From Ginglymostoma cirratum (lineage: Eukaryota): DNA of 63,621 nt. Location of the stretch: NCBI GenBank assembly GCA_024137785.1, contig JAHRHZ010000111.1:34731830-34795450 (forward strand), given 5' to 3'. The translations under genes and the position numbers were made by a program. Below are positions 880 through 63,621 of the stretch, one piece after another. Below the pieces are notes generated by a model. The model saw nothing but the letters and a program-made list of their open reading frames with translations, was not told the origin of the DNA and ran no database searches. The stretch's first letter is position 1, and each line of letters begins with the position of its first letter.

Positions 880-1830
880 CCTCTTGGTATTACCCTAAGC
901 CTTACCATCTTCGATTGCTTCATCAATGATCTTCCCCACCATCACAACATCAGAACTGGGGATGTCTACTGATAGTTGTACAATGTTCAGCTCCACCCCC
1001 AAATTGTTAGATACAGATATAATCCTGCTTGTCTACATACAGCAGGACAATATTTAAGCTTATAATAAAAATCAAGATTCAGCAGAAGCTGGAAATCTGA
1101 AATAAAAATAGGACGTGCTGGAGAAACCGAGCAACACTGGCAGCATATGTGGAGAGAGAAATACGGTTTTACGTTGAGTTCGATCTGAGTCTTCTTCTGA
1201 CGAAGAGTCATATCAAATTAACATTAACTCAAAAACATTAACTCTCTTTCTCTTTTCATAGATGCTGCCAGACCTGCTAAGTTTCTACAATGCTGTTCTT
1301 TTTATTTGACATCCAAGCTTAGACTGATGTGCGGCAAGTAACATTCACACCACACAAATGCTAAGTGATGATCATCTCCAAGAACAATGAATCTAACCAC
1401 CATATCTTGACATTCAATGGAATACCATTATTGATTCCTCACGCTATCAAAATCCTGGGGTTTGCCATTGACCAGAAACTGAACTGGACCAGCCGCAAAA
1501 ATACTCTGGCTACAAGAGTTGTCAGAGGCCAGAAATTCTGCTGCAAGTTATCACTTCCTGTCTCCCCATTGCCTGTGCCCCATCTAAAAGGCAGAGCCAA
1601 GAGTGGGATGGAATACTTCCCACTTGCCTGGATCAGTGCGGCTCCAACAACACTCAAGAAGGTTGACACCATCCAGGAGAGAGCAGGCCACTTGATTGGC
1701 ACCACATCCATCACCTTGAATGTTCACTTCCTTCATCACCAACACTCAGTCACAGCAGGCAGTAACATCTAGAAAGTGGACTGCAGCAACTCATTCAGTA
1801 GAATTTTCCAAACAAGCACAAACTGTGGAG
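880..1830 (+). mobile_element. CR1/L2-group LINE RT/C-terminal remnant, interrupted by a PLE fold-back insertion
   Basis: FINDLP...GMxxD-like RT motif near 920-980; ORF 1365..1772 (ILGFAIDQKLNW...MEYFPLAWISAAPTTLKKVDTIQ) matches the LINE at 10151-13365. Confidence 0.75.
1063..1308. mobile_element. Fold-back (inverted pair) of PLE terminal repeat, old
   Basis: Left arm is the reverse complement of the right arm family (gatgctgccagacctgct); junction near 1196 at a decayed CTGACGAAG; decayed TSD atatttaagctta/acatccaagctta (1050-1062, 1309-1321). Confidence 0.7.
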
Positions 1831-2032
1831 GGCAGCTGTGGGCTACCAGTGTTTGACTGGGTGAATGCTGGCCTTTAAAGATGATGCCAGCAAAAGGCAT
1901 TTCTCGAAACGACAATGGAAGAGTGGACCATTGGGATGCTGAATGTTCATTTCAGGTGCCTATAGAAGACAAGAGTATTGGCTAGTGCGCCGAGATACCC
2001 CAGTGAAACTCCAAAGGTTGTCATAGTATACT

Positions 2033-2460
2033 TTCTTGAGGTTGTAGACTTGCTCGCCGAGCCGGTGTGTTTGATTGCAGACATTTTGTCACCCTGCTAG
2101 GTAACATCATAAGTGCGCCTTCGGTGAAGCATTGGCGTTCTGTCCCGCTGGTTATTTACATGCCTCGGTTTGCTGGGGTGGTTGGTATCAGTTCCGGTTC
2201 TGTTCTTCAGTGGTTTGTATATTGGGTCCTGTTCAATGTGTTTATTGACAGAGTTACGGTCGGAATGCCAGGCCTCCAGGAATCCCACAGCATGTCTCTG
2301 TTACGCTTGTGCTCTTATGGATGTGTTTCCCTAGGTGAATTTATGTCTTTCTTTGTCCGTGTGTATTGAGACCAATGAGAAGTGATCATGTCTCTTTGTG
2401 ACTAGTTAGTGATCCTGTATCCTTCGTGTCAGTTTTCTTCCAGTTTGGCCTGTGTAATGT
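2033..2460 (-). mobile_element. Penelope/Poseidon-type PLE 3' end (GIY-YIG endonuclease remnant plus terminal repeat)
   Basis: Minus-strand translation YTGQTGRKL.RRI..H...KRHD..SLVSIHTDK...FLEAWHSDRNSVNKHIEQDPIYKPL, with stops. Confidence 0.85.
2077..2116 (-). ncRNA. Decayed minimal type-I hammerhead ribozyme motif
   Basis: Reverse complement reads GCA CUUAUGA U GUUACC UAGCAG GGUGAC AAAA UGUC UGC; helix I GCA/UGC and 6-bp stem II intact, core G5 and G12 mutated. Confidence 0.6.
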
Positions 2461-2811
2461 CTGACCCATCTTCTGCACATCTGACCTCACCTCCTCTCTT
2501 CTCTTCCACAACAGCATCAGGGTTCCCCTTGTCCTTACCTACCGGCCCACCAGCAACCACTTCCAGAAGATCATCAGCTACTATTTCAGTTACCTGCAAT
2601 GAGGTACCACCACCAGACACATATTCCCCTCCCCTCCCTTGTCCACCTTCCGCAGGGACATTGCCTCCGGGACACCCTGGTCCAGTCTTCCTTCACCCCC
2701 AACACCTTCCCACAGCCCCACAGCACATTGCCCTGCAACCACCAAATGTTTAGTACCTGCCCACTTACCTTCTCCATCCTCAGTATCTAAGGGCCCAAAC
2801 ATACCTTCCAG

Positions 2812-3141
2812 GTGAAGCAGCACTTTACCTGCACTTCCCAGAATCTAGTCTATTGCATTTGCTGCTCACAACGTGGTCTCCTCTACATTGGGGAAACGAA
2901 GCATAGACTGGGTGACCACTTTGCAGAACACCTACATTCTGCCTGCAAAAAAGACCCTGAGCTTCCAGTTGCCTGCCACTTTAACACACCACCCTGTTCC
3001 TTGGCCAACATCTCTGTCTCTGGCTTATTGCAGTGTTCCAGCGAAGCTCAGTGCAAGCGAGAAGAACAACACCTCATTTTCCACTTGGGGACCCTGCAGC
3101 CCTCTGGTCCCAATATTGAGTTAAATAATTTTAGAGCCTAA
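2812..3141 (+). pseudogene. GIY-YIG endonuclease domain of PLE (remnant ORF)
   Basis: FTCTSQNLVYCICCSQRGLLYIGETKHRLGDHFAEHL...EEQHLIFHLGTLQPSGPNIE: VY...YIG motifs and conserved E and N. Confidence 0.85.
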
Positions 3142-3400
3142 ACTGTCCCATGCACTAGCCCCCTATCCCACATACCAGGCCTTGTTTACCACATAGTCTG
3201 CCATTACACACCATGTGCTCTTAGCCACTAACAGTCTCCATTAACAGGTATTCACCCTCCTAGCCTGATTGTTATCAACTCCTTTGTCTGTCCAACTGTT
3301 TTTCTCTCTCTTTGGGCTCTATCCACACTGATCATTTATTTATTACCCCTCCCCCAACCCTATCTTCTGCATATAAACCAAACTTTCCCCAGCTACCATC

Positions 3401-3438
3401 AGTTCTGAAGAAGGATCACTTGACCCGAAACATTAACT
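3401..3438 (+). ncRNA. Minimal hammerhead ribozyme motif (CpG-decayed)
   Basis: AGUU CUGAAGA A GGAUC ACUU GACCC GAAA CAUU AACU; helix I AGUU/AACU. Confidence 0.65.
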
Positions 3439-6080
3439 CTGATTTTTATTCAGAGGTGCTGCCAGACCCGCTGAGCTTTTCCAAAAACTTTTGTTTTTGT
3501 TTCTGATTTATGACATCTGTAGTCCTTTCAGCTTTTATTTAGCAGAGCTGATTATGTCATCAGTCTACCAATGTCATTATTGTGGGAGGTAGTCAAGAGG
3601 ACTAGAACAGGGAATGTTCCATGAAGAGTGAAACATGTCAGTATCCAAAATTATATCTGTTACTTGAAGCAAATGAAGTTGATCTGCTGTCTGCCAACCA
3701 ATCCTCACTTCATGCTTGTAAATTATCAACAATCCCACATCCTTTGATTTTGCACAATAACCTCTTGAGTGGGACATTATCAAAAGCTTTCAGCTTATGG
3801 TTAGTGGATGAAGTCAACGAGTCCAGATCTTGGAATACAGTGGAAAGACAGTTGAGTATTCGCTGGCAATCTGATCAAGGAGCTCAAGTATCTACAGTCA
3901 CAGAATCTGTAATGAAAAAGAAAACTTGAGGATCATATAGCTCAAAAAACCTAATCAAACAATGCTTTAGAACCTAATCTTGCAGGATAGCTGGAGATCT
4001 GAAGAATTTTAAAGTGAATTCTTATGAGCTGTGGCCACGTGTGAATTGGTCCCAGAAAACGTCAATGAAGCATCAAGATTCATTAAGATAAAGTAACTCT
4101 TGGGGCAAAGTGAAAAATAGGACTGAGTTTAGAGCATAAGTTAGAGTGTTAAATTAGTGATGCTTGCTTTTTTAATTTCTCCTTACAATGGTTGCTTTTA
4201 TTTAAAAATGTTAAGCCTTGTGGTGCAGTTCTGTCATTTAATTGCTAAGTGTTTAAATTTCATCTTTAAATATTAATTACCTCTAACGGCACTTTAACAA
4301 TATTAAAACTAAGGGAGTGATGGGAGTTGCACTGCTGACTTCCAATCCTTATTTGTCTTCCTGTTAGCCATTGGAGAAGAAAAGAGATTCTTTTTGAACA
4401 GTCAGTTCAGTCTCTTTCTGTTGAGGTGGTTTCCTGCTACCCAGTAGCCCCACAGCCAGTACTTTTCCCATCACCAGCAACCCCATGAAATGTAGTGCCT
4501 TGCTGTGAGTTCTTCAAAACCAGTGTTGCAACATTGAATGTAATAATCCATGAAAGCTTCATAATTAGATTGCAGCTCACCTGTAAATAATGCATGGCTC
4601 CATTTTCACCTAACTTTAGACTTAAAACAGTTTTGATGCAGTTATTCTGACATTAAGAGTTTAAAATATGTCAGGTTGCAGGCATGTTTGAAAGTACACA
4701 GCTAATGTCACTGCAGCAATGAATTATTCTTAATATTAAAGGTCAGTCTCTGTAATTTCCTTGTCAAAGTGTATTAGTATTGCAACCATGACACTTGTTT
4801 TCTTTACATCAGTAACTTAATGATCATTTCGAAAATGTTTGTCAGTTAATGTAAATTAGATGAGGCTCTTTTACCGTTTTGTCCACATATTTAACTTTAT
4901 TCCTGATGAGATCATAAACAACAGATATCATTGCACAGCTTTCAGGTTGACAGTGCTAATGGAAATGTTATTAAATATTATGACAATCTATGAAGTGCAT
5001 AGGATAAAATATAACAAACACAGAACTGGTCATTTTCAGTTTTGTCACTGGAAGTAGGCAGCTTAGTCTCGAAGACTGTGTGTGCAATTGTTTACATTCT
5101 TGTGGAATGTTATCAACCCAAAGGGAAGGCAATCAAAAAAAAAGCTTGTACTTTTCCCAAACTCTGCAATGAACTGAGTGTTTCTTATCCCCTGATAATT
5201 TATCATTACTTATCTGAGGGGCAAAATGTTCCATTGGCGTTTGTTTCCAAAGCCAATGGAGAAACAGCCTCTGTCTCTCAGTGAATCAAAGGGTAATGCA
5301 GAGAGTTTGGGAAAGTGAAAGTTGAATTGGATCAGTTATTATCATATTGAATGGCAGAGAAAGTTTGAAGGATGATCCAATCTGTGCCTGATCCTACATT
5401 TTTAAAATGTTTCTTCCGTCAAATATTAATTTCGAATTAGAATCAGTTGAAATCACAAATAAAGTTAAAGACCCACAACTGTCTTAGAGACTTCATATTT
5501 GTAACATATAGTTCTAAGAGAAACAGTTCCACTGGTCTGTTGTTCTACTAACAAGAATTGTATAAAATTGTACATATTTACCCTTCTCCAGATAATAAAA
5601 AAAAGTCTTCCCTAAAGATCTCAGGACAACAAATTGGGAAAATGCATTCATTCTTTCTTCCACCAACTTTATAGCAGATTTGAACCCCAGATGTCATAGT
5701 TTATTGCGGTAAAAATCTTCCAACATGAAATCTGATTGTGTTGGTAACTGGAATTCACATGGGAACTGGAATTGAAATATTTATTTTAGAAGTTATTGAG
5801 CCTTACATTGATCATAGCACAAAGCACAGCCCAGTGAAGTTTTCCTTTCACAGAACACTGCCTGCAGGAACATCATGTCACAATGGTTGATGCTGTGAAT
5901 CAGGTGTTGTGGGCACAATCATAATATTTGAGATGCTGAGTGATAACTAACAATCATGTTATTTACTGTGCTCTGTTTAAAAGGTAAAACTGTGCACAAC
6001 CAAAGCAAAAGGAACAACATAAACAAAAGATAAATAATGAAAAATCAGTCATGATCCTTTTAAGAGGTGTGTGTGAGACA

Positions 6081-6249
6081 ACGAATTAAACTCTCAAATA
6101 AAATAAATAACTGCAGATGCTTGAAATCTGAAACAATAACAGAAACTGCGGTTCGGAACAAGAGTAACTGGACTCAAAACACTAACTGTGTTTCTCTCTC
6201 CGCTGATGCTGAAGGGACCAATGATTTTCTTCAGCAGTTTCTGCTTTCT
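6081..6249. mobile_element. Short fold-back PLE terminal-repeat insertion
   Basis: Minus arm (actgcagatgcttgaaatctg) then plus arm starting at a decayed hammerhead (~6150); perfect 11-bp TSD TGTGTGAGACA at 6070-6080 and 6250-6260. Confidence 0.7.
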
Positions 6250-7389: not shown

Positions 7390-7490
7390 CCAAAAAACAG
7401 AAATTGCTGGAAAAGCTCAGTCGGTCTGGCAGCTCCTGTGGAGAGAAATCAGAGTTAACGTTTCGGTTCAAGTGACCCTTCCTCAGAACT
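7390..7490 (-). mobile_element. Solo PLE terminal-repeat fragment beginning at a hammerhead motif
   Basis: Same family as 3400-3540 and 34604-34850. Confidence 0.75.
7453..7490 (-). ncRNA. Minimal hammerhead ribozyme motif, core intact
   Basis: Reverse complement reads AGUU CUGAGGA A GGGUC ACUU GAACC GAAA CGUU AACU; ACGU palindrome in helix III, one stem II mismatch. Confidence 0.75.
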
Positions 7491-7764: not shown

Positions 7765-8560
7765 GTTTAACATTTAGGTTCAGTTGGCAGTTAGGAAGGC
7801 AAATGCAATGTTAGCATTCATTTTAAGAAGACTAGATACAAGAGCAGAGAGATATACTGTTGAGGCTATATCAGGCTCTGGTCAGACCAAAAAAAAAGTC
7901 AAGTTTTCCTGCTCCTATGATGCTGCTTGGCCTGCTGTGTTCATCCAGCTCCACACCTTGTTATCTCGGATTCTCCAGCATCTGCAGTACCTATTATCTC
8001 TGATCAGACCATGTTTGGAATATTGTGAGCAGTTTTGGTTCCAGTGTTACAGGAGGATGTGTTGGTGTTGGAGGTCTCAAGAGGAGGTTTATATGAATGA
8101 TCCTGGGAATGAAAGGTTCACATATGAGGAGCCGTTGAGGACTCATGATCTGTACTCAATGGAGTTTAAAAGGATGAGGGTGATCTGATTGAAACTTAGA
8201 AAATACTGAGAGGCCTGGATGGAGTGGATGTGGAGAAGATGCTTCCACTAGTAGGAAAGACTAGAACCCAAGGGCACAGCCTCAGAGCGAAGGGACAACC
8301 CTTTAGAACCGAGATGAGGAGGAATTTCTTCAGTCAGACAGTGTAGAATCTGTGGACCTCACAGAAGGCTGTGGAGGCCAAGTCAATGCGTGTATTTAAG
8401 AGAGACATAGACATGTTCTTGATGAGTAGGAGGATCAAAGCTAACACAGAGAAGATAGGAAAATGGGTTTAAGAAACATATTAGCCATGATTGAATGGTG
8501 GAGAAGGCTCGATGGGCTGAGTGGCCTATTTCTGCTCTTACATCTTATGGTTTTATGTTC
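7765..8560 (+). mobile_element. CR1 3' end, interrupted at 7890-7998 by a PLE terminal-repeat fragment
   Basis: AVRKANAMLAFI..LEYCEQFW; CR1 tail near 8510-8560; insertion flanked by tctg(g/a)tcagacca. Confidence 0.8.
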
Positions 8561-14544: not shown

Positions 14545-15930
14545 AACAGAATCATGGAATTTTACAGGTTTAGAGGAAGGCCATTTGGCCCATCGTGTTT
14601 ATACTGGCTCCCGAAAGAGCTACCCAGCTAGTCCAGTTCTTTGGCTCTATCTCTGTAGATCCCTAACTTCATCATTTTCAAATATGTATCTAGTTCTCTT
14701 TTGAAATCACCTATGGAATCCAGCTCCACTACTCCCCAACTCGGCTCATTCCAAATCCTCACAACTCTCTGAGTAAAATCATTTCTCCTCATCTAACTCC
14801 TAACTTTCTTGCTGACAATCTTGAAATCGTAATCAATAATCATTGACATGCCAAATGTAAGAAACAGAATATCCTTCCTTACCCTGTCAAAATTGTTGAT
14901 AATTTTGAACACTCCAATGAGATAATCTCTTAATTTTCGCTGCTCCAAGAAAGATAGTCCAATTTCTCTAATCTTTCCTTGTATCTAAAATCCCTCAGTC
15001 CTGGTTCATTCTGGTAAATCTCCCTTGCGCTCTCTCCAGGGCTTTAAAATCCTTCCTTAAACAAAAGGCCCAGAACTGAACACAATACTCCAAATCTAGT
15101 CTGACCAATGAGCTGTAGAGGTGCAGGATCACCTCCTTGCTTTGGTACTCTATGCCTCTACTTATAAACCCAGCCCGAAACGTCAAGTTTTCCTGCTCCT
15201 ATGATGCTGCTTGACCTGCTGTGTTCATCCAGCCCCATGCTTGTTATCTCAGATCCTACAAGCCTTCTCAATGACTTTTACAACTTGCCCTGCCAACTTT
15301 AGGTAATTATGCACATGAATCCCAATCACCCCCTGCTCCTGTAGAATCCTCAAAGTTGTACTATTGAGCCTGTATTGGCTCTCCATGTTTCTTCTAACAA
15401 AATACCGCACATTTCTCTGCTTTGAAATTCATCTGTCAGATGTCGGCCCATTTGGCCAACTTGCCAACATTCCTCTGAAGTCACTCAATAATATCCTTGC
15501 AATTAACAATTCTCCCTAGCTTAGTATCACCTGAATATTTAGAGATCTTGTCCAGAACACCAATCTCCAAAATGTTTATATAAATCAGAAAAGGCAAGGA
15601 TCCCAACACCGATCCCTGGGGAATGCCACTTTTAACTCATCTCCAATTTCCTAACCAATCTGCCATGTTGAAATGCTTTCTGAGAGTCCACATATACATC
15701 ATCCACTGCACTACCCTCATCCACCTGCCTGTGTCACTTCGTCAAAGAACTCAATTAAATTTGTCAGACATGACCTGCATTTGACAATGCCATGTTTACT
15801 GTCTACTATTAACTTACCTTTTCTCTAAGCATATATTTAGCTTATCCCACATTAAGACCTCCATCAGTTTTCTCACTTTGATGCCAAGATGACAGCTCTA
15901 TGGTTTCCTGAGTTATGCTTTGCCCTGTGT
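14545..15930 (-). mobile_element. CR1 LINE 3' 1.4 kb (RT to tail), decayed; PLE fragment inserted at 15173-15250
   Basis: ORF 14995..15186 (GFISRGIEYQSKEVILHLYSSLVRLDLEYCVQFW); GIPQGSVLG motif near 15600-15630. Confidence 0.85.
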
Positions 15931-19650: not shown

Positions 19651-19677
19651 AACTCACTGTGAAATAAAGCACTTTAT

Positions 19678-19812
19678 TTCAGTTCTGAAGAAAGGTCACT
19701 ACACCCGAAGCATTAACTGAACTTTGTCTTCACAGATGCTGCCAGACCTGCAGAGTATTTCCAGCAATTTCTGATTTTGTTTCTAATTTCCAGAATCTTT
19801 GGTTTTTTTTTG
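19678..19812 (+). mobile_element. Solo PLE terminal repeat starting at a hammerhead motif
   Basis: UUCAGUU CUGAAGA...GAAG CAUU AACUGAA (7-bp helix I, core decayed); TSD taaag(c/t)acttt at 19665-19675 and 19813-19823. Confidence 0.75.
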
Positions 19813-20025
19813 TAAAGTACTTTGTTCACTGTAAAGTACAGTGGGATATTCTGAGCTTGTGATGGGCACTATTTAAATTCAAGTTGTTTGCTTTTTTTTA
19901 ATGTGTACTTTTCATCTTTCCAATAGTCTGATCTGGATCACAGAGGTGGACTGTAATTTGTCCTTGATAACAAGCATGGGGCTGGATGAACACAGCAGGT
20001 CAAGCAGCATCATTGGAGCAGGAAA

Positions 20026-20061
20026 ACTTGACGTTTCGGGCCTAAACCCTTCATCAGAAAT
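20026..20061 (-). ncRNA. Minimal type-I hammerhead ribozyme, intact core
   Basis: Reverse complement reads AUUU CUGAUGA A GGG UUUAGG CCC GAAA CGUC AAGU. Confidence 0.8.
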
Positions 20062-20625
20062 GGGGGAGGGGAAGAGGGTTCTGAAATAAATAGGGAGAGA
20101 GGGGGAGGTGGATAGAGGATGGATAGAGGAGAGGATAGGTGGAGAGGGGGCAGACAAGTCGAAGAGGCGGGGATGGAGCCAGTAAAGGTGAGTGTAGGTA
20201 GGGGGGTAGGGAGGAGATAGGTCAGTCCAGGGAGGACGGACAGGTCAAGGGGGCGGGATGATGTTAGTAGATAGGAGATGGGGGTGTGGCTTGGGGTGAT
20301 CTCTGATACAATTTTAACCCCACTGCGAAGCCTCTTCTAAGTTCATCCAGCCCCATGCTTGTTATCTCGGATTCTCCAGCATCTGCAGTACCTTTTATCT
20401 CTGATACAATTTTAACCCCACTGCGAAGCCTCTTCTAAGGATGCCTACCATCCTCCCTGGACTGACCTATCTCCTCCCTACCCCCCTACCTACACTCACC
20501 TTTACTGGCTCCATCCCCGCCTCTTCGACTTGTCTGCCTCCGCTCCACCTATCCTCTCCTCTATCCATCCTCTATCCGCCTCCCCCTCTCTCCCTATTTA
20601 TTTCAGAACCCTCTTCCCCTCCCCC

Positions 20626-20661
20626 ATTTCTGATGAAGGGTTTAGGCCCGAAACGTCAAGT
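20626..20661 (+). ncRNA. Minimal type-I hammerhead ribozyme, intact core
   Basis: AUUU CUGAUGA A GGG UUUAGG CCC GAAA CGUC AAGU; predicted cleavage after C20657 (GUC). Confidence 0.8.
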
Positions 20662-21399
20662 TTTCCTGCTCCTATGATGCTGCTTGACCTGCTGTGTTCA
20701 TCCAGCCCCATGCTTGTTATCTCGGATTCTCCAGCATCTGCAGTACCTTTTATCTCTGATGTAATTTGTCCTTCCTCTGTGGGGAAATGTCGATATATCT
20801 TGACTTAAAGCAAATAATAACCCCATTTTTGTCCAGTGCTCACTGATGCTGATTTCCAGGTAAACACGTTGTGGTCTCAATTTCCTAAGTGTTTCAGTTC
20901 TTAGGGGAGCAGCTCAAATTTTTAGCAGTTGACTGGAATAGATGTGGTGTTAGGCCGCTTGTAATAGTTATTGCTTTCCAAACTGCATCCATTATGTTTC
21001 CTTTGGCTTCACTTTTATTAAAATCCAGACTGCCAAAACTAAATTTCAGTTGGAATCTGATGTAATTCAGGATTCTGACATGAAACTCACCATGAACTTG
21101 GTCTTTATGTTCCATGTAACCCATCCACTCTTATCTGTGATCATTACGTATGTCACCTAATACCTCAAGAGGAAGTGACTAGCTAAACAACAGCATGATT
21201 CATGCAATACAGATGAGCAACTTGGGGAAAGCACGTGTGAATTGCATGGTGAAGTAGTATAAAATAGAAAAATTAAAGAAGGGACAAAAAGCTTTTTGCA
21301 TGTTAAGTATCAGCACCTTTGGCAGCACAGGGCAAAACTAAATGTGGCAGGATAACAGGTGCTGAGTGACGCCATTCCACATTTTCTAATTTTCTTTTG

Positions 21400-34603: not shown

Positions 34604-34850
34604 AACAAAAACAGAAGTGGCTGCAAAAGCTCACCAGGTCTGGCAGCATCTGTGAAGGAAAAAAACAGAGTTAACGTTTCAGGTCTGGTGACCCTTCCTC
34701 AAAACTGTTCTGAGGAAGGGTCACCAAACCCGAAACATTAACTCTGAATTTTTTTTCTTCACAGATGCTGCCAGGCCTACTGAGCTTTTTCAGCAACTTC
34801 TGTTTTTGTTCCTGATTTACAGCATCCGCAGTTCTTTCGGTTTTTCTTTC
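34604..34850. mobile_element. Fold-back PLE terminal-repeat element with two head-to-head hammerhead motifs (34669-34706 minus, 34706-34743 plus)
   Basis: Arms are reverse complements around 34706; TSD AGATTGAAC at 34598-34606 and 34851-34859. Confidence 0.85.
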
Positions 34851-35399
34851 AGATTGAACTTTGATCAAGTCACTCAATCTTCTAAATTTCTAAGAGGTTC
34901 ACCCATTTTACATGATCTTCCTCAAAATTTTATCTTTTGAATAAATCTATGCTGCTCACCCAAAGTCAATATATCCTTCCTAAGATCTATAGCCCAAAAT
35001 TGTTCTGTGTGTAAAAGGTCAACAATCCTGATGGAGAGTTCTAGACATTTGACCCAGCAAGTGGATTAGGCAAAATGTAGTTTCGAGTCAGGATGGTGTG
35101 AGACTTGGGAGGAAATTTGCAGGGTGTACCCTGATTTTCTGCTAAACTTCTTCCTCCAGGTGGTAGAGGTTTGGAAGTTTTTGTCAAAGGAGCCTATGTG
35201 TTGCTACATTGTATTTTGTAGATGGCATGTGCTCTGTGCACAGGTGAAACAAGTGATATTTGAAGGTGGTGAATGGATTGCCAATGAAGCAGATGGATTT
35301 CACCCAGAGTGTGAGCGTTGTTGGAGTTGTACTCATCCAGGCAAGTGGGGAGTATTACATCGCATTCCTGATTTCTGCTGTGTAGCTTAGAGGGCAGGA

Positions 35400-35535
35400 A
35401 TAAAACAAAGAACTCTGGATGCTGGAGATCCGAAACATAAGAACAAAGTGCTGGAGAAACTCAGCAGGTCTGACAGCATCTGTAGGGAGGAGAACAATTA
35501 ACAGGTTGAGTCCAGTGACCCTTCATCAGAACTGA
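35400..35535 (-). mobile_element. PLE terminal-repeat fragment with decayed hammerhead (35495-35534), inside a LINE remnant (~35020-36360, minus)
   Basis: Reverse complement CAGUU CUGAUGA A GGGUC ACUG GACUC..., GAAA lost. Confidence 0.65.
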
Positions 35536-35606
35536 AAGAACTGGGAAATGGTATCAGTGTAAACTTCATCAGAACTGAAAGAACTGGGAAATGGTATCAG
35601 TGTAAA
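35521..35606. repeat. Perfect 43-bp tandem duplication
   Basis: cttcatcagaactgaaagaactgggaaatggtatcagtgtaaa x2. Confidence 0.95.
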
Positions 35607-36772
35607 CGTTACCATTGCCACCAGAATCTGAGTTATTCACGATGCCTTGCTTCCGACATGCTCTTGCAACCACAGTATTGGCTGATTTGATTCATTTCTA
35701 CTGTTTGAATTGTACAGAAGTGTTGACAAATTAGAATTGGCAGCCCCGAAGAGGCACTGTAAACAAATCAAATGATTAAACCATCTACAATTGAACTATC
35801 ACGTTCGTTATGAATTGTTTCCGTTCCTAGTCAATCATAACTTGAGATGTCAGTGGGTGATTCAGCAAAGGTGGTGTCAGTGCACATCAAGAGGTATATA
35901 GTTTGCTTCTCTCTTTTTGGAAGCTGGCACTTGAGGCATCAAAGTGACTGTCAGTTACAAGCCTGGATATTGCTCAGGTTTACTAGGCCCTGCTGTCCAC
36001 CCCCATAGACATAGGCTGCTTCTGTATCTGAGTAGGAAATGGTGCTAAGCGTTATGCTTTCATCAACAAATGTCCCTAGTTCTGACTTTTATGATGGAAG
36101 GAAAGTGGTTGATGAAACTGCTGGGCCTATGGCACCAACCTGAGGAATACTTGTAGTAATGTCATAGGCTGAGATCAACTCCAACCATAATCATTGTTCT
36201 TTTATGATAAGCATGACTTCATTGCTAAGCAATCAGCAGTTTCCCCTTTGGTTCCTATTGACTCCAGTTTTGCAAGGGTTCTTTCTGACCCATTCATTCT
36301 AATGTTGTTTTGATGTGACGGGAAGCCACTCTCACTTTCCCTAGGTTTATGAATCCTATAGTAATGGACTTGCTGAGGTAGTCAAGTACAGATCCTTGCA
36401 AGATACCATTGCATCCTGCCAATTAGGGTATCTACCAACTACCACCACTAGCTCCAGTCACTCAGCCAGTTTCCTAATTAAGTCAATTTGGCTTCATTCC
36501 ATGAACTACAACTTGAGTTAACAATCTCAATAAGGAAATGTTTTCTAAACATCCACATAGAGAAACATTAAGGATTCCTGTATCCATAACTTCAATCATC
36601 TCTTCAAAAGATTTGATCAGATGAATTTGCAGACACATTGCATTTGGCTGGCTCTTTCTGAGCTGAAGGTGTAAGATGCTTAGTCACTGTACTAATTATA
36701 GATAAGCAATCCTCTAACAACTGATCTTCAGCTAATTGGCTTATAATTCCCTTGTTTCTTATTTGAAATGTG

Positions 36773-37454: not shown

Positions 37455-37670
37455 AGATTACACAGTGTGGAGCTGAATGAACACAACAGGACAGGCAGCA
37501 GCAGAAGAGCAGGAAAGCTGACATTTCGGGTCGGGATCCTTCTTCAGAAAGAAGGGTCCCGACCTGAAACATCAACATCCCTGCTCCTCTGATGCTGCCT
37601 GGCCTGCTGTGTCCCTCTAGCTCCACACTGTGTTATCTCTGACTCCAGCATCGGCAGTTCTTACTATCTC
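37455..37670. mobile_element. Fold-back PLE terminal-repeat element, junction inside hammerhead motifs (~37549)
   Basis: Minus-arm motif CUGAAGA A GGAUC CC GACCC GAAA UGUC; plus arm starts aagaagggtcccgacctgaaacatc; TSD-like aaaaatttt both sides. Confidence 0.8.
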
Positions 37671-38779
37671 CGAAAAATTTTCATTGTAGCATTATTTTGA
37701 TCCAGAATGCTTTGCTGTGAAAAGTGGTGGAAACAAATATAATAGCTTTCACAGAAAATTGATAGTATCCTTGAAAGGAACTTTTAGAGCTCAGAGAAAG
37801 GATCAGGTGGTAAAGCTACATAGATAGGTTTTTCAAGCATCTTACATAGCCAAATCGCTTCCTTCTGCATTATAATTCTACAATTCAATCTACTGAGCTT
37901 CTATCATCAATTCAGTACCCATTGATCTTCATGTTCACACTTCGTAAATAACAAATGTTAAAATGTGAGGTTCTGGTAGCACGATAAGATGTGCAGTTAA
38001 GAATTAAATTCTGTAGCAGTAGACTAAAGTAGAAATGTTTGCCCTAAATCTGTGCTGCACTGTTTTCCAATTGAATTGATGCCTCTGAAGGCTTGAAAAT
38101 GAGCTAGGCTGCAATTAGCTTTGCTTGCCAGCCTAAGGTGATAATAAACTGTTAGTGCATTTGCAGTAAATGACTTATACTTTCAGGTAAACTACCATGT
38201 CTTTCCAACTTATTCAAGCTTCATTTGAGTTCTTTTGCAAAAGGATAATTACCTAAATTTTCAACCTGGTGGGGATACTTCTCTGCATCAGAAAAGACAA
38301 ACTCTTCTTAAAAATTCCCTTGCCACTTAAAATGAATGTTTCCCATATTTTAATCTTTCATCCAAGGAATCAAATCGTAAATTGTACTTCAAAGCATCAT
38401 CCATGAAGTATACAATTTTAATATACTGAGATTTAGTTAAGAACAAACCATCAACTTACAAGGATAATAAATCATTCCAAGCTTGGATCCTAGAAAAAAT
38501 AGTGCTTTAATTTCCTCCAGCAATTCAAAATCAGAGTTCCAAAACTAAATGCTGTTCTAGAAGTCAAATTAAAGCAGCTGTCTTGGACTGCATTGAAAAT
38601 AAAACTTGAGCATTGCCCTAAGTATTTGTTTTTTCAATTTTTTTGATTAAATAGTTGCTGTGTTTGAATAAATCCTAAATCTTTCTCAATGACTCGGAAA
38701 TTTGCAGTGTCCTTGCCCAACCAGTTGCCCAGGATGTTTGCTTGAGGCAAAGTTTAGCAACATATCTACAAGAAGACAC

Positions 38780-43880: not shown

Positions 43881-44990
43881 CCAAGTCTCCAAGCCTCCAA
43901 GCCTCCGCTTGGTTTTCCCGACGTAGAGGAGACCACATCGGGAACAGCGGATACAATATACCACTTTAGCAGATCTCCAGGTGAACATCTGTTTAATGTG
44001 GAAGGTTTTCTTGGGGCCTGGGATTGGGGGAGAGAGGAGGTGTAGGGGCAGGTGTAGCACTTCCTGAGGTTGCATGGAAAAGTTCCAGGGGTGGTAGGGC
44101 GAGTGGGGAGTGTGGAGCGGACATGGGAGTCAAGGGGAGAGCAGTCCCTCCAGAAGGCAGGCAAGAGTGGGGAGGGAAAAATGTCCTTGGTAGTGGGGTC
44201 AGATTGCAGGTGGCCGAAGTGTATTTCCTCAACGTACCACCCCACCAACCTCAGGATTCAACGCATCATCCTCCTATACTTCTGCCACCTGCAATCTGAC
44301 CCCACTACCAAGGACATTTTTTCTCCCCACTCTTCTCTGCCTCTGCTGTTCCCGATGTGGCCTCCTCTACATCGGGGAAACCAAGCGGAGGCTTGGAGAC
44401 CACTTTGTGGAACACCTACGCTCAGTTCGTGACAAACGACTGCACCTCCCAGTCGCGAACCACTTCAACACCCCTCCCACTCCTTGTACGACATGTCCAT
44501 CTTGGGCCTCCTCCATTGCCCCAACAATGCCACCCAAAGGTTGCAGGAACAGCACCTCATATTTCGCTTGGGAACCCTGCAGCCCAATGGTCTCAATGTG
44601 GACTTCACAAGCTTCAAAATCTCCCCTTCCCCAACTGCATCCCAAAACCAGCCCAGTTCGTTCCTGCCTCCTTGACCTGCCAGTCTTCCCTCAACTGACC
44701 AACCCCCATCCCAACTCCCCACCTACACTCACCTTTACTGGCTCCATCTCCGCTTCCTTGACCTGTCTGTCTTCTCTCCACCTATCTGCTTCTTTATCCA
44801 CCTTCTATCACCGCCTCCCCCTCTCTCGATTTATTTCAGAGTCCCCTGCCCCTCCCCCATTTCTGAAGAAGGGTCCAGACTCAAAACATCAGCTTTCCTG
44901 CTCCTCTGATGCTGCCTGGCCTGCTGTGTTCATCCAGCTCTACCCCTTGTTATCTCAGATTCTCCAGCATCGGCAGTTCCTACTATCTCT
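43881..44990. mobile_element. Neptune-type PLE 3' end with 5' inversion (minus arm ~43881-44224, plus arm ~44221-44990)
   Basis: Minus arm GTFPCNLRKCYTCPYT and VVYCIRCSRCGLLYVGKTKRRLG; plus arm LYIGETKRRLGDHFVEHLRSV..EQHLIFRLGTLQPNGLNVDF; terminal repeat with decayed hammerhead 44859-44893. Confidence 0.9.
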
Positions 44991-56811: not shown

Positions 56812-57078
56812 GGTCTCAGCCCGTGCTCCCTCCACTGGGAGACTCGGCCCAGGCTCACTCCACTGGGGGACTCAGACCGCACTCACTCCACTGGGGGACT
56901 CAGACCGCACTCACTCCACTGGGGGACTCGGCCCACGCTCGCTCCACTGGGGTACTCGGCCCGGACTCACTCCACTGGGGTCTTGGCCCGCGCTCGCTCC
57001 ACTGGGGGACTCGGTCCGCACTCACTCCACTGGGGGACTCGGCCCACGCTCGCTCCACTGGGGTCTCAGCCCGCGCTC
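56812..57078. repeat. GC-rich minisatellite, 28-bp unit, about 9.5 copies
   Basis: ctccactggg recurs at 56830, 56858, 56886, 56914, 56942, 56970, 56997, 57025, 57053. Confidence 0.95.
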
Positions 57079-58799
57079 CTCATCCATCATTTCACTGACG
57101 GTGTGGTCACATGCAAGCATTTCACACATGAAAAGTCCTTTCTCACCACTATTCTGACAATCTTGGGAATTTATTTCTGGACCCTAACCTTATCACATTT
57201 ATCAGTGAAGGAAAAATAATTATGTAGATCGTGGAATGAAGGCAGATGAGAGGTAGAATGGGATGGTTCCTATTCCCCCTAACTTCAATTTCCATTGCTC
57301 TGTGCTCTACACAGGTCTTTGCAAGCCAGATGTGAAGATATGATTAAAGGTAAACAATGGTAAGCAGCATTCAATTGTCAAGAACAGGGTACAATAGCAA
57401 TTGACGTCCTGAGGCAGTTTGTCTCCTACAACCTTAGGTACTAGAAATGCATCATCTATGTGCACACACATTGCAGTAAACGAACTTTTCCATTTCCAAA
57501 GCCATCTGACAGTTGATGAAGTGGTGCGTATTTCATCCTTGAAGGATATCAGCTCACATACTAAAGTCTCCTTTCATAGCAGTGTCTCTCACTCTGCACA
57601 GAAGGAAACAGTTGCAGACTCTGAACACCTGAAATAATTTCAGAAAATTCTGAAAGCTCTCCTCAGACCATGCAGCATTGTTGATAAATAAACAAAATTG
57701 TTTATTTCAGTTTCTATGGTCTTTCATCAGGACCAGTCCTGCACTATTTTCTTCCTGCCATATCCAAATTAAAGTAACCTTAAAAATATCACTCTTTCTA
57801 TTTTTAGGAGAATTTAATTGGGGATTGAGTATGTAACCCAAGTTTTAATGACAGAGGGCTAACACTGAAAATATCATTACACAGCTTGGTGGTGTTGTCA
57901 ATTAAATAATTGCTTGCAATGGTATCAGAAAATAATGGTCCAGGACAACAAAGTGGTGACAGCAAGCTGCTTGGTAATGAGTAACATATTTACGTTGCCA
58001 ATTTCGCTCAAGTCATAAAACCTTTGCTGCATCATTATGCCAATCATGAGTCTGTAGAATTGACAATCAAAACTTCATTTATATCATTTTGATGTGTTTT
58101 CACTCGAGTACAAAATAAATTAAATAGTTCTGAATAACTGTGTCCACCTTGTGTTAATCCCTTCCAAAAATATCCCTGACAACTTGTAGGTCCTGTTTCT
58201 GACATCTGACTTTCGTCTTAATATTCTGCTCCAATTGTTGGCACTCCCCATTTAAGTTATGATAGAATGTTGATTTCTGTGGCAGCATGTCTATTTTTAT
58301 TCTCATTGTCAATCTGAATAATCATTGGTGGGTCTCCAGTGGGTCCACCAAATGCACTGACTCTTGGGAGACTTAGGATTAGAATTCTGGCCAATGAACA
58401 GCTTCCACTGCATGTTCACTAGCGCAAAGGCAGAGTTGAACTGCTCTGCACTGTTTCCAGTTCCTTGACAAGATACATACTGCTAAAACTCAATGATCTT
58501 TTTTGTTCATGTACCTTACATGTTTGGTTTATAGTTTGAGAGAATCTTTGCACCAATGCATCAGCTGTCCTTAATATCCATTCAAATAAATACATTTTCA
58601 ATACAACTCTTTTAGTTACCTAGCTCTTCGAATTTCTTCATTATTTTCCCTGCTCAATTCATCCTGTTCTAATGGCACTAAATCTCTATTGCTTTCCAGC
58701 ATATTTTTACATCTTAAACCCTTTTCTAAATCCTCTCCAGTTCAGTAATTTCCTTCCTTTAACAGGGCGACAAGAATTGCACATGCTACTCCAGAAGTA

Positions 58800-60715
58800 T
58801 GCTGAGTAGGAAAGATACAAAGACTAGCAAAGGGTCCCAAAGCAGCTTAAAAGCGATACTAAAAGGGATTATGAAAGGAAACTTGCAAGAGACTTCAAAA
58901 TCAATAAGAAGGAACGTTATAGTTGGATAAAGGGAAACAGGTGGTCAAGGACAATGTTGGCCGACTGAAGACTGAATGTGGCGATCAATGTGGGGAAATG
59001 GCAGACGTGCTGAATAAATACTTTACCTCAGTATTTCCATACGGAGAGCAGGATAGCTTACCAGAAGTCTTGAGGAAGTTAACAGTGGATCGGGGACTGG
59101 GACTGAATAAGTTTAATGTAATGATAGCAATGAGGAAATAAATGGAATTATAGAGTGACAAAGCCCCAAGACCTGAAAGTTTCCATCTGAGGGTGTTAAA
59201 GGAAGTAGGGGAGAACATTGTAGATATTATAACTATAATTTTTCAGAGTTCCCGAGATACAGGATTAATCCCTTTGGATTGGAAAGTTGCGCAATTCATT
59301 CTGCTTTTTAAGAAGGGCTAAAGAGGAAAACCAGGGAATTATCGCTAGTTAGCCTAACATCTGTAATGGGGAAATTGTTGGAATCAATAATCAAGGATGG
59401 GGTAACTGAATACCTCAAAACATTTCAGTTAATCAGGGAAAGCCAACATGAATTCATTACACGTAGGTCATCCCTTACAAGCCTGATTGAATTTTTTGGG
59501 AAGATGATTCATTTAGTTGACAGAGGAATGTCTATGGATGTTGTTTATATGGGTTTCCATAAGGCATTTGATAAAATCCCACACAAGAGATAAAAGCCCA
59601 AGGAACTGAACACAAATTACTGATATGGCTGGGAAATTGGCTAAGTGACAGGCAACAGAAAGTAGGGATAATAGGTAGGTGCTTAAATTGGCAGGGTATA
59701 ACCTATGGAGTCCCACAAGGATCTGTGTTAGGGCCTCAATTATTCACATTATTTATTAGAGGTTTGGGTAATGGTATAGGAAGTCATATCTCCAAACTGG
59801 CATCTGACACAAAGTTAGCCAGCAGTGTAGACAGTGCAGAGATAGAATAAAATTACAAAGGGATATTGATAGATGAAGTGAATGGACAGTGTAGCAGATG
59901 GAGTTCAAAGTAAGCAGGCATGAGGTTATCCATTTTGGATTGAAAAAAGATAGATCAGGGTGCTTTGTAGATAGTATGAAGTTAAATACAGTGGATGCCC
60001 AAAGAAAGTTGGGCGGTCAGGTGCATAGATCTTTAACGTGGCACAATCAGTTGCAGAAAATAACCAAGAAAGCTAATACAATGTGGGTCTTTATATCTGC
60101 TGGGCTGGAGCACAAAGATACAGAATTTATGTTGCAGTTATACAAAACGCTGGTTAGACTCCAAATGGAGCACTATGAGCAGATTTGGCACCAAATCTTA
60201 GGAAGAATATATTGGCCTTGGAGGGAGTACAACAAAGGTTTACACAAATGATACCTGGACTTCAGGGCCTAAATAATGAAGCGAGATTATACAAAGTAGG
60301 CCTGTTTTCTCTTGATTTTGGAAGGTTAGGAGGTGATCTGATCAAAGTTTTTGAGATATTAACATGAAAAGACAGAGTAGATAAAGATAAACTATTTCTA
60401 TTGGTTGGAGACTCCAGAACTATGGATGTAGTCTGAGAATTCGGGCCAGACTGTCCAGGAAAGATGTTAGGAAGCGTGTCTACACACAAAGGGTGTAAGG
60501 GGTTTGGAACTCTCTTCCACAAAAGACAGTAGATACTGGATCAGCTGTTAATTTTAAATCTGAAACAGCATTTTTTTTTTTTGTTAAGCAAAGGTGTCAA
60601 GAGCTATGGACCAAAGGCAGGTATATAGAGTTAGACAAAAGATGAGCAATGATCTCATTGTATTGTGGAACAGGCTTGAGGGGCTGAATGGCCTACTCCT
60701 GTTCCTGTGTTCCTA
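58800..60715 (+). mobile_element. CR1 LINE 3' 1.9 kb, decayed
   Basis: EMADVLNKYFTSVF; MDVVYMGFHKAFDKIPH; GVPQGSVLGPQLF; LYKTLVR; cctgttcctgtgttcctat tail. Confidence 0.9.
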
Positions 60716-62539: not shown

Positions 62540-62885
62540 GAGGTGACAAGGTGGCTCAGTGGTTAGCCCTGCTGCCTGACGGTGCCAGGGTTCTGGATTT
62601 GATGCCAGCATTGGGGGACTGTCAGTGTGAGTTTGCACATTCTCTCCATATCTCTGGGTGCTCCGGTTTCCTCCTGCAGCCTAAAGATGTGCAGGTTAGG
62701 TGAACTGGCCAAGATAAATCGTCCATGGTGTCCACGGATGTGTAGGCTAGGTGGATCAGCTATAATAAATGTGGGGTTACAGGATATGGTATGGTGGTGG
62801 GTCTGCGTGGAATGCTCTTCAGAAGTCAGTGTGGACTCAATGGGCCAAATGTCCTCCAACTGTACTGTAGGAATTTTGTGATAGA
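62540..62885 (+). mobile_element. HE1-type V-SINE
   Basis: gtggctcagtggttagccctgctgcct...gagtttgcacattctc...ccggtttcctcc. Confidence 0.85.
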
Positions 62886-63081
62886 AAAAAAATTGAAAGT
62901 GTGATGTATGTAAGGTCACCTTAGTTCATTCCACCTAAAGTGATGCTCATTCTTTGCCTCTGAATAGGCAATTCTTTAAAAATTAAACCAAGGATTTCAC
63001 TTCCATTTTCTTAGTTTTTTTTTATTGTGAAACAGAACTCCTCAGGTATCACAAATTACCTGCATTACTAAATTGAACAGA

Positions 63082-63284
63082 CCCACGCCTTGTTATCTCG
63101 GATTCTCCAGCATCTGCAGTACCTTTTATCTCTGTTCTACTTCAGCTGTTTGATTGGAGAGAGATAATAGGTACTGCAGATGCTGGAGAATCCAAGATAA
63201 CAAGGCGTGGGGCTGGATGAACACAGCAGGCCAAGCAGCATCATAGGAGCAGGAAAGCTTGACGTTTCGGGCCTAGATCAGACC
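63082..63284. mobile_element. Two young PLE terminal-repeat fragments (63082-63134 plus, 63160-63284 minus)
   Basis: Same family as 19966-20759; 16-bp direct repeat CTTCAGCTGTTTGATT at 63140-63155 and 63285-63300. Confidence 0.85.
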
Positions 63285-63511
63285 CTTCAGCTGTTTGATT
63301 AACTGGATAGAAGAATGACATTTTATTCTCAAATTTCTGTAAGGTCACATTACAGATCTGTGATTTGTTTTGGGCTTATGCAATTTGTAAATATGAATCT
63401 GGAAAATGGATGTATGATATAGCCCAAGCTCTACATTACAAATGTTTGTGCTTCAGGTTTAAAAACTACTGCTTCATGGACCACCTACAGAAACCAACAT
63501 GACAAAATTCA

Positions 63512-63621
63512 GAGATAACAAGCATGGGGCTGGATGAACACAGCAGGTCAAGCAGCATCATAGGAGCAGGAAAACTTGACGTTTCAGGCCTAAACCCTTC
63601 ATCAGAACGTCAAGTTTTCCT
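63512..63621. mobile_element. Young fold-back PLE terminal repeat, cut by the window end; hammerhead core at 63574-63607 (minus)
   Basis: Reverse complement UU CUGAUGA A GGG UUUAGG CCU GAAA CGUC AAGU; orientation flips at ~63606 (aacgtcaagttttcct). Confidence 0.85.

Follow-up and report, generated by a model that had tools for sequence, protein, structure and literature searches.

Fold-back insertions built from two Penelope-like pLTR ends in Ginglymostoma cirratum: probable scars of priming at both target strands

Background

What process leaves behind an insertion that codes for nothing and consists of only two short inverted repeats, each with a ribozyme-like motif? The question is raised by five fold-back insertions in a 63,621-nt stretch of Ginglymostoma cirratum DNA (GenBank assembly GCA_024137785.1, contig JAHRHZ010000111.1, positions 34,731,830 to 34,795,450), which is the window analysed here. 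The initial annotation saw in them either a retrozyme-like non-autonomous family mobilised by Penelope-like elements (PLEs) or stereotyped products of PLE integration. The origin of the tandem and inverted structures of PLEs has been called undefined (PMC8557442), and self-priming on an antisense template has been proposed for these elements (PMC3846280). ORF-less copies are the simplest form of inverted PLE structure.

Structure and source of the fold-backs

All five insertions consist of a minus-strand pseudo-LTR (pLTR) arm joined head-to-head to a plus-strand pLTR arm, as the initial annotation had described, and the whole of each tiny insert is made up of two arms of 55-145 nt. At least two arm families are represented (A/C and B profiles). 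In the following, the 5′ ends of arms are numbered relative to C3 of the hammerhead motif. The first fold-back (245 bp at 1063) belongs to an old B-like family; its tail-bearing minus arm (1065..1197, tail at about 1065-1099) begins at +2 and its tail-less plus arm (1195..1307) at -2, with a 3-nt microhomology at 1195-1197, and a short internal duplication disrupts the GAAA box of the tail-less arm. The second (169 bp at 6081) joins a short tail-bearing minus arm (6096..6151), comprising the tail and about 20 nt but no hammerhead, to a tail-less plus arm (6151..6249) with a 5′ end at -3 and a decayed hammerhead; 15 unexplained nt (6081-6095) precede the tail-bearing arm. In the third (about 247 bp at 34604, family B), a tail-less minus arm (34604..34707, 5′ end at -5, hammerhead with C3 mutated) meets a tail-bearing plus arm (34707..34850, 5′ end at -3) with a 1-nt overlap at 34707. 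The fourth (217 bp at 37455, family C) has a tail-less minus arm (37455..37550, 5′ end at -3) in which the hammerhead core boxes are intact and helix I is shortened, and a tail-bearing plus arm (37549..37671) that begins at +3, lacks C3-U4-G5 and shares a 2-nt microhomology with its partner. The fifth, at 63512, is cut by the window end and its size is incomplete: a tail-less minus arm of the young family A (63509..63607, 5′ end at -2, core boxes intact) is followed by the first 16 nt of a plus arm (63606..63621) that starts at +22 and is cut before any tail or TSD.

The insertions differ in age, in agreement with the initial annotation. Arm-to-arm identity is 75% at 1063, 90% at 34604 and 82% at 37455; between the 63512 arm and its own subfamily, identity is 98% (about 2% divergence). 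The insertions are non-coding; a Pfam scan of 137 window ORFs gave no match overlapping any fold-back. Folding z-scores are -7.8 (1063), -2.8 (6081), -19.1 (34604) and -13.0 (37455), so that read-through transcripts are predicted to form dsRNA hairpins. With five tiny copies within 64 kb their density is high, and PLE-derived pieces make up about 8% of the window.

One feature that the initial annotation missed is a one-sided tail. In all four complete fold-backs, and in a longer element at 19961, one arm carries a 33-40 nt PLE tail and the other does not; at 34604 and 37455 it is present on the plus arm and absent from the minus arm. The outer 33-40 nt are not inverted copies of each other, as the tail has no inverted partner; of the two outer ends, one coincides with the tail-less boundary and one with the end of the tail. 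Because the tail is on one arm only (4/4 complete copies), these ends are not TIRs.

Arms of the same kind end two GIY-YIG bodies in the window, which supports the PLE origin first proposed. A 5′-truncated PLE body on the plus strand (2423..3541) contains a Cys-motif linker, a GIY-YIG domain at 2791-3138 (a Pfam match short of the curated cut-off, E=0.0012), a 3′ UTR, a family B pLTR (C3 at 3405) and a tail. A PLE 3′ body, also on the plus strand (43893..44990), contains a GIY-YIG domain at 44329-44630, found by tblastn, then a family C pLTR (C3 at 44863), with an inverted PLE body fragment at 43893-44221. Protein relatives occur in Mobula, Rhincodon and Stegostoma. Both window bodies are 5′-truncated before the RT core, and the elasmobranch homologues P0004 and P0009 have RT-like sequence upstream. 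A C-x4-C-x2-C motif is present in the RT-EN linker of P0004 and, read by eye, of the aligned window bodies. It corresponds to the Zn-finger-like Cys motif in the linker of the Neptune clade, which Nematis also has (PMC8557442). The GIY-YIG bodies, the one-sided tail, the TSDs and the hammerhead described below support the view that the fold-backs are derived insertions of EN+ PLEs. A shared TSD around a Poseidon-like piece (2036-2460) and the 2423-3541 body was considered and rejected (p=0.03 in a loose test, p=0.92 in a position-aware one).

Other arms are scattered through the window. The element at 19961 (19966..20759) is a long version of the young 63512 subfamily, in which a tail-less minus arm, a partial internal tandem containing 43 nt of post-tail sequence and a tail-bearing plus arm are flanked by an exact 14-bp TSD; its arms are 98% identical. 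Solo B arms include a tail-less minus copy (7393..7490, 5′ end at -4) and a tail-bearing plus copy (19678..19812, TSD 11-14 bp) whose 5′ end, at -8 to -4, is blurred by a palindromic target. A further solo B arm (35399..35607, minus strand) reaches -36 and has a 43-bp tandem duplication of its 5′ part, and a very old B-like one (57604..57734, minus strand) ends at 0 by X-drop and at about -4 by eye. Two solo A arms lie on the plus strand, one tail-bearing (7890..8004, 5′ end at +25 after an A run, TSD about 8-10 bp) and one tail-less (15173..15250, 5′ end at +16, no significant TSD). A tail-to-tail pair of family A arms (63078..63297) has a 22-bp duplication, the left copy of which is split by the plus arm.

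By motif parsing, the pLTR arms carry a minimal type I hammerhead with predicted cleavage. The young 19966 and 20444 arms have the core boxes, 4/4 pairs in helix I and a 6-bp stem II; helix I is 4/4 in 8 of 13 parsed arms. Rfam gave no match in the window at gathering threshold and 14 at E<=10, all below cut-off and none a hammerhead, and monomer folding of five hammerhead stretches found no significant stability (z -1.3 to +1.5). Such a folding null is expected for minimal motifs, and the hammerhead call therefore rests on parsing. Sub-threshold Rfam MIR matches land on fold-backs. The initial description of two ribozyme-bearing repeats does not stand in that form, as two full-span hammerheads are found in only one of five fold-backs (34604) and two intact cores in none: C3-U4 is missing from one arm at 1063 and 37455, one arm at 63512 starts at +22, and one arm at 6081 has no hammerhead. 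That ribozymes on opposite strands cannot form a cis-dimer, as was pointed out initially, follows from established hammerhead chemistry.

Traces of the insertion event

The four complete fold-backs have TSDs of variable length, about 9-17 bp, whose significance was assessed by a position-aware test against 3000 random pairs. The clearest are an exact 9-bp TSD at 34604 (34598-34606 / 34851-34859, p=0.001) and an exact 11-bp TSD at 6081 (6070-6080 / 6250-6260), for which p=0.001 holds only when 6081-6095 is counted as part of the insert (p=0.92 when tested at the tail end). At 37455, 9 bp are exact within about 13 decayed ones (about 37441-37454 / 37672-37684, p=0.004). At 1063 the statistics are weaker (p=0.027 position-aware, p=0.20 in a looser window test). 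This fold-back with its decayed duplication (1046..1321, copies at about 1046-1062 and 1308-1321) lies inside an older repeat, three paralogous empty copies of which, also in the window, show the target site once. The duplication is not 9 bp but about 14-17 bp long. All complete copies do have TSDs, some of them decayed, over a wider range than the 9-13 bp first given. Flank-based empty-site searches for the five fold-backs worked for 1063 only.

The junctions, given as tail-less arm/other arm, are -2/+2 at 1063, -3/about +75 at 6081 (the latter value read from the alignment, not from objective end calls), -5/-3 at 34604, -3/+3 at 37455 and -2/+22 at 63512. The junction was initially placed at or in the hammerhead, which is true of both arms in 4/5 cases but not at 6081, where one arm ends about 75 nt outside. 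All five junctions differ, although one 64-kb window with five tiny copies from about four subfamilies gives little power for finding repeats, and 1-3 nt of microhomology occur at junctions. Within the same young subfamily, at 98% identity, 63512 and 19961 differ wholly in junction and arm lengths. Of 19 whale-shark gene-model peptides, four have head-to-head arms next to each other, and their junctions differ from one another and from those of the window; the 34604 junction recurs in none of the 19. These are automatic gene models, possibly spliced and biased by reading frame, and two bacterial matches (P0017, P0024), being due to chance, are excluded from the 19. A search with the junction peptide near query length gave no match. 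Stray shark DNA was looked for twice in bacterial and archaeal genome contigs; one scan had 0 hits and the other four, which lie in GC-rich bacterial DNA and agree in little beyond the 21-mer.

Arm 5′ ends fall at -5..-2 before C3 in 6/11 short loci and at -8..0 in 8/11, the four long arms (3402, 19966, 20444, 44860) being excluded from these statistics. Objective arm ends were used in place of ends set by eye, which had given stronger p-values. The scan p ranges from 3.5e-5 (null -40..+80) to 0.013 (null -10..+35, 5-nt window), with an arbitrary null and a window width picked after looking. In the non-fold-back loci alone the cluster is 3/7 (p=0.12 with by-eye ends, not significant), and two solo arms (7489, 19682) end at the same 5′ boundary. 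The tail-less arm tends to reach further, not significantly so (p=0.06); the pattern fails in whale-shark P0038, where the tail arm extends to +2 and the tail-less arm starts from about +38, and perhaps, by eye, in P0028. The motif YYANWYY occurs at -6..0 in all five arms with native upstream sequence, in both families, against a background of 1.3% per position; this initiator-like motif is weak and the five arms are related. Self-cleavage was rejected as the cause of the boundary: none of 19 short-arm ends lies at the predicted cleavage site (+28 in A, +30 in B), the nearest being at +25 and +22. A 3′ splice acceptor would fit family B (YCAG at -6..-3), but A/C arms have no AG there and no exon-1 sequence is found at the junctions; it is kept as a minor alternative only.

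Origin of the hairpins

The fold-back anatomy argues for two independent primings. Each hairpin is probably a one-off scar of two PLE pLTR ends set head-to-head, formed when both nicked target strands prime reverse transcription. The top-strand and bottom-strand ends would each copy RNA from a different one of the two start sites, which would give the order TSD, minus arm, plus arm, TSD with a one-sided tail. In Anolis, the PAc protein nicks and extends both strands and starts reverse transcription at two internal sites that bound the tail (PMC11167929). The cDNAs would be short if the RT, starting in the transcript's 5′-proximal pLTR, reached the 5′ end of the RNA after about 100-140 nt and ran off there; the run-off end would be the initiator-like YYANWYY, its A lying 4 nt before C3. 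To run-off from the 5′-proximal pLTR at a YYANWYY transcript start as the reason for the short cDNAs we give slightly less than even credence. With PAc, shorter template 5′ ends gave shorter products, and hammerhead cleavage was unneeded (PMC11167929). Counting against a start at -4, the TSS in D. virilis is about 120 nt upstream and it is an intron end that maps to helix I (PMC2377424, PMC4209133). The arm inner ends clustered before the hammerhead may mark the start of the template RNA. Finally, short self-complementary words in the hammerhead region could let two same-sense cDNA ends anneal, after which host repair would seal them.

The resulting hairpin is predicted to be dead on arrival, because the post-tail sequence required on the PAc template is missing from it and because read-through RNA would bury the sole sense hammerhead in duplex. 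More tentatively, and in our judgement less likely than not, the hairpins could be double strong-stop products, in which both target ends are primed by a dimeric PLE protein at the pair of tail sites in the 5′-proximal pLTR and run-off occurs at a transcription start that coincides with the 5′ strand of helix I. If so, one rule would account for the inverted pLTR, which has long lacked an explanation, for the tail on one side only and for the solo minimal hammerheads that number in the thousands in animal genomes, and shark genomes would be filled with ready-made dsRNA hairpins and divergent mini-promoters.

Of the alternatives to two-strand priming, the best survivor, though unlikely, is collapse of canonical elements or of long inverted pairs such as 19961, with the TSD kept, through recombination between direct pLTRs or deletion at the centre of a cruciform. 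The canonical structure, an inverted pLTR plus pLTR-ORF-pLTR with an 8-10 bp TSD and a junction palindrome, has been described (PMC3846280); long inverted pairs are present in the window (19961, 43893), and a quasi-palindrome at -2..+4 supplies microhomology. However, divergence of the 63512 arm from its subfamily is only about 2%, the tiny solos (7489, 19682) share the boundary with no partner for folding, and the window has no full-length element while the long pair at 19961 persists at 98% arm identity.

Quite unlikely, too, is snap-back self-priming, by which one cDNA or an antisense template folds on the hammerhead hairpin and copies itself. The junction microhomologies do sit in self-complementary hammerhead words, and self-priming was proposed for junction palindromes by Arkhipova et al. 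(2013, PMC3846280). But at least 2 nt at the 5′ end of the tail-less arm are absent from the other arm in 5/5 fold-backs, the other arm has the tail, and the 6081 arms overlap by 18 aligned columns only; because each arm holds sequence that its partner lacks, neither is a snap-back copy of the other. Flanking DNA would also be expected to be copied.

We regard it as very unlikely that the hairpins are a non-autonomous, self-propagating family of retrozyme or SINE type, reproduced in full from read-through RNA by PLE proteins. Similar sizes (169-247 bp), clustered junctions and the fact that 5/6 head-to-head pLTR pairs in the window are tiny would fit such a family, and PLE pLTRs are able to mobilise passengers in trans (PMC3846280). 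Against it, no junction is repeated among five window and four whale-shark cases (with few copies per subfamily), and a single cDNA would have to halt exactly at the second RT-start boundary each time. The outer ends lie on RT-start or tail boundaries, post-tail sequence is absent, and the unit is not in tandem repeats in the window. The A-to-I editing suggested as a check is not apparent either, the arms showing no strand-biased A-to-G signature (14 G.U versus 19 A.C mispairs). Of the two initial readings, then, stereotyped integration products are supported, with junctions all different, and the retrozyme-like family is not.

A DNA-transposon MITE with terminal inverted repeats, suggested by the short, non-coding fold-back shape with a TSD, can practically be dismissed, as the outer 33-40 nt are not inverted copies, the TSDs (about 9 to 17 bp) are not of fixed length, and the arms end PLE bodies and occur solo. 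The pattern that the initial annotation had named as refuting its reading, transposon TIRs with a TSD of fixed length, is not what the fold-backs show.

The 5′ pile-up allows a sharp prediction of the PLE transcript start. If the density in this window is typical, such hairpins would contribute much intronic dsRNA and could mislead annotators of MITEs and miRNAs.

Relation to known systems

The architecture itself, an inverted pLTR with a one-sided tail, TSD and opposite-strand hammerheads, is already published, and the fold-backs represent a refinement within a known class of elements rather than a new system. In the open literature (outside Repbase, Dfam and subscription papers) we found no ORF-less pLTR fold-backs in sharks and no 5′ pile-up at helix I, although Fig. 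S2 of PMC11167929 (genomic pLTR coverage) may already show one.

In EN+ PLEs the inverted pLTR is 5′-truncated, and a tail of 30-40 bp is found on one side only (Craig et al. 2021, PMC8557442; Arkhipova et al. 2013, PMC3846280; Schostak et al. 2008, PMC2377424). Like the fold-backs, they combine a head-to-head inverted pLTR and a tail at one end with 8-10 bp TSDs and a short overlap or palindrome at the inversion junction. The copies described in these papers, however, keep an ORF or a partial tandem between the repeats, whereas the fold-backs are two arms only, with inner ends that pile up at helix I of the hammerhead.

In Schistosoma mansoni, dual min-HHRs on opposite strands, 100-700 bp apart, were attributed to truncated PLEs, and single min-HHRs occur genome-wide (Cervera and de la Pena 2014, PMC4209133). 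These resemble the fold-back motifs in being type I with a 4-bp helix I, an extra base before stem II, a palindromic minimal helix III and opposite-strand pairs. In contrast to their spacing, the fold-back hammerheads abut or cut each other.

PAc (Poseidon, Anolis carolinensis; Frangieh et al. 2024, PMC11167929) shares with the fold-backs two RT starts that delimit the tail and lie 90-150 nt downstream of the hammerhead; nicking and extension affect both strands and hammerhead cleavage is dispensable, although the clade of PAc differs from that of the fold-back PLEs. The main text does not connect two-strand extension with inverted pLTRs, the word 'inverted' occurring there once, for an inverted dT; the link is drawn here. 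The arm ends are U-rich in RNA, versus an AC-rich RT start in PAc.

Animal non-LTR retrozymes are likewise short, non-coding and pLTR-derived with a type I hammerhead, and are known from a chondrichthyan too (Li et al. 2026, bioRxiv 10.64898/2026.07.22.740005; PMC11722881). They form head-to-tail tandems with a complete hammerhead in at least two consecutive units, whereas the fold-backs are head-to-head, single and have broken cores. The window contains no tandem array of the unit, and no fold-back (0/5) has two intact cores.

A last parallel is L1 twin priming, where the second target strand primes a second cDNA, the junction shows microhomology and the TSD is kept. Second-strand priming, an inversion junction with microhomology and the TSD would be common to L1 and the fold-backs. 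In L1, however, the second primer pairs with an internal complementary stretch and there is hardly any overlap between the two pieces, whereas the two fold-back pieces begin about 35 nt from each other at fixed sites of the element. These arms copy the same segment, and the product is therefore a hairpin, unlike that of L1 twin priming.

Arm pairs and their source

The window is repeat-rich, non-bacterial DNA of about 41% GC, and Pfam matches among its 137 scanned ORFs are retroelement domains only (GIY-YIG, AP endonuclease and RT fragments). Self-BLAST and profile searches placed pseudo-LTR (pLTR) arms of Penelope-like elements (PLEs) at 15 loci, where they fall into two related groups, A/C and B; the reversed-sequence control gave no arm matches in the same searches. 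Head-to-head pairs occur at six loci: five tiny fold-backs, named by their starts (1063, 6081, 34604, 37455 and 63512, the last cut by the window end), and a long one at 19966-20759 (19961), of the same young subfamily as 63512. All five fold-backs of the initial annotation are genuine inverted arm pairs. Arm-to-arm identity is 75% in 1063, 90% in 34604 and 82% in 37455; the arms of 6081 overlap in 18 columns only, and the window includes just 16 nt of the plus arm of 63512.

The PLE origin proposed for the arms is borne out by two bodies aligned to elasmobranch RT/GIY-YIG proteins: 2423-3541 terminates in a B arm (3405) and 44329-44990 in a C arm (44863). In both, a Cys motif precedes the endonuclease, as described for Neptune and Nematis (PMC8557442), which points to one of these two. 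The GIY-YIG peptide at 2791-3138 has 13 relatives; the ones with a name or looked up belong to Mobula hypostoma, Stegostoma tigrinum and Rhincodon typus, which suggests a shark or ray as host. Abutting the first body head to head is the 3′ end of a different PLE (2036-2460, minus strand), whose GIY-YIG wording, judged by eye, suggests Poseidon and which has a minimal hammerhead of its own near 2083-2116; no positional TSD was found around this pair. The PLE insertion at 43893-44990 has two nested inverted repeats, its inverted part being GIY-YIG body sequence and not pLTR; a TSD was sought there and none was found. AP-endonuclease and RT LINE fragments lie at 17948-19067 (minus strand), 51464-51718 and 59312-59847, and a 28-bp GC-rich minisatellite of 9.5 copies at 56815-57078. 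Older repeats host several pLTR arms (1063, 7894, 15173).

By motif parsing, the arms bear a minimal type I hammerhead with core boxes, a palindromic minimal helix III and a single additional base ahead of stem II. Helix I occupies -4 to -1 relative to C3; of the 13 arms parsed, 8 have it fully paired (4/4). The description of the fold-backs as two ribozyme-bearing repeats was overstated: both arms carry a full-span motif in 34604 alone, and two intact cores occur in none of the five. Seven of the eight listed B arms also contain a 3′ splice-acceptor-like motif (branch-point-like word, pyrimidine tract and YAG), for example at 34732-34765 (plus) and 34650-34680 (minus), the branch-point-like word overlapping the predicted cleavage site. 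In a B fold-back this motif would be present on both strands. B arms are included as exons in several whale-shark gene models. An otherwise old B arm carries a perfect 43-bp tandem duplication of upstream pLTR and first hammerhead box (35521-35607).

Junctions, boundary and tail

Objectively set 5′ ends, numbered from C3 with the tail-less arm first, are -2/+2 (1063), -3/about +75 (6081), -5/-3 (34604), -3/+3 (37455) and -2/+22 (63512). The arms overlap at the junction by 1-3 nt in four fold-backs and by at most 1 nt at 6081. No junction recurs among the five; the arms of 63512 and 19961 are 98% identical, yet length and junction are wholly different. When junction-spanning reading frames were searched against protein sets, adjacent head-to-head arms appeared in 4 of 19 whale-shark gene-model peptides, P0019, P0021, P0034 and P0038 (aligned ends 0/+18, 0/+6, +21/+43 and +2/+38); in a fifth, P0027, the arms are 127 residues apart. 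The pattern is thus present, with variable junctions, in the gene models of at least one other shark assembly, models that may be spliced and are frame-biased. In the window the tail-less arm tends to reach further (p=0.06 only), but P0038 contradicts this. In whale-shark model P0028, where tblastn picked up the plus arm only, a degenerate minus arm may, by eye, join the plus arm via helix I complementarity, at the predicted cleavage site.

When 11 short loci (four long arms excluded) are each represented by their most 5′ end, 6/11 fall in -5 to -2 and 8/11 in -8 to 0. The scan-statistic p for this cluster is 3.5e-5 against a uniform null over -40 to +80, 0.013 over -10 to +35 with a 5-nt window, and about 1e-4 when the -36 locus is added (6/12). 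Two solos have the same boundary; solos alone are not significant in the scan test (p=0.12). The word YYANWYY, with A at -4, is found in 5/5 arms with native upstream sequence, in both groups, and resembles the initiator consensus. Were transcription to start at -4, the arms would be run-off cDNAs from the transcript's first pLTR. PLE transcripts do begin inside the upstream pLTR (PMC2377424), but a start at -4 is at odds with D. virilis, where transcription begins ~120 nt upstream and helix I coincides with the end of an intron (PMC2377424, PMC4209133). An acceptor-like YCAG lies at the boundary in family B and is absent from A/C. As a third option, the near-palindrome from -2 to +4 could act as a pause site or as a hot spot for microhomology, but this leaves the solos unexplained. 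No arm ends at the predicted self-cleavage site, in agreement with the use of uncleaved RNA by Anolis PAc (PMC11167929).

All four complete tiny copies and 19961 have a tail on one arm only, extending 33-40 nt beyond the internal boundary at which the other arm stops. PLE tails are usually described at one end only (PMC8557442, PMC3846280), and the tail of PAc is bounded by two RT start sites (PMC11167929). Since 19961 includes 43 nt past the tail, the template extends beyond it. A short motif is common to the tail-less and tail ends of family A (20714-20724 and 20749-20759), and both ends of family B are U-rich in RNA, which hints that the two putative start sites are degenerate repeats. The region 19952-20773 is young and reproduces the canonical PLE layout in miniature, with an exact 14-bp TSD, an inverted tail-less arm, a partial tandem in which post-tail sequence occurs twice and a tail-bearing arm. 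At 63078-63297 two tail-bearing family A arms lie tail-to-tail; a 22-bp duplication surrounds the minus arm, its left copy split by the plus arm. Both carry a variant absent from other A copies, so they probably stem from one event or one source.

A position-aware test supports the TSDs claimed for complete fold-backs, with p from 0.001 to 0.027. The 9-13 bp length did not hold at 1063, where the TSD is the weakest and ~14-17 bp long, but is confirmed by three other host-repeat copies bearing the site once. At 6081, 15 nt of unexplained origin separate an 11-bp repeat from the tail end. Asymmetric ends and variable TSD length rule out a MITE.

Origin of the hairpins

With purified PAc protein, both strands of the target are nicked and extended (PMC11167929). 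Such two-strand priming, shown in vitro only and for PAc, probably applies to the shark hairpins as well. Staggered nicks would leave two 3′ ends, which would prime cDNA synthesis on pLTR RNA from the tail site and the tail-less site, respectively; the cDNAs would halt no further than the helix I boundary, anneal via 1-3 nt and be sealed by repair. The hairpin geometry is read directly from the sequence, whereas we infer that both primings act together on a single target, that the cDNAs run off and that they are joined.

Propagation of whole hairpins as a family is disfavoured by junctions unique in this one window, exact second ends, the lack of post-tail sequence in hairpins and the lack of editing skew: arm mispairs show no bias of the kind that A-to-I editing of hairpin RNA would leave (14 G.U vs 19 A.C). 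Collapse of longer elements is disfavoured because the 63512 copy is young and tiny solos exist. Each arm has sequence missing from the other, which speaks against snap-back, in which one cDNA copies itself. The hairpins are probably by-products of integration by two-ended priming rather than a family.

Searches of open literature turned up neither the ORF-less shark form nor the helix I boundary; Repbase, Dfam or a supplementary figure may contain them. ORF-less hairpins offer a direct way to test how PLE inverted repeats arise. Retrozymes, as described in bioRxiv 10.64898/2026.07.22.740005, are defined by tandem units, whereas the shark fold-backs are built without them. Inverted architecture and opposite-strand hammerhead pairs are already published for PLEs (PMC8557442, PMC3846280, PMC4209133), and the arm motif has the same form as the minimal hammerhead described for metazoan PLEs (PMC4209133).
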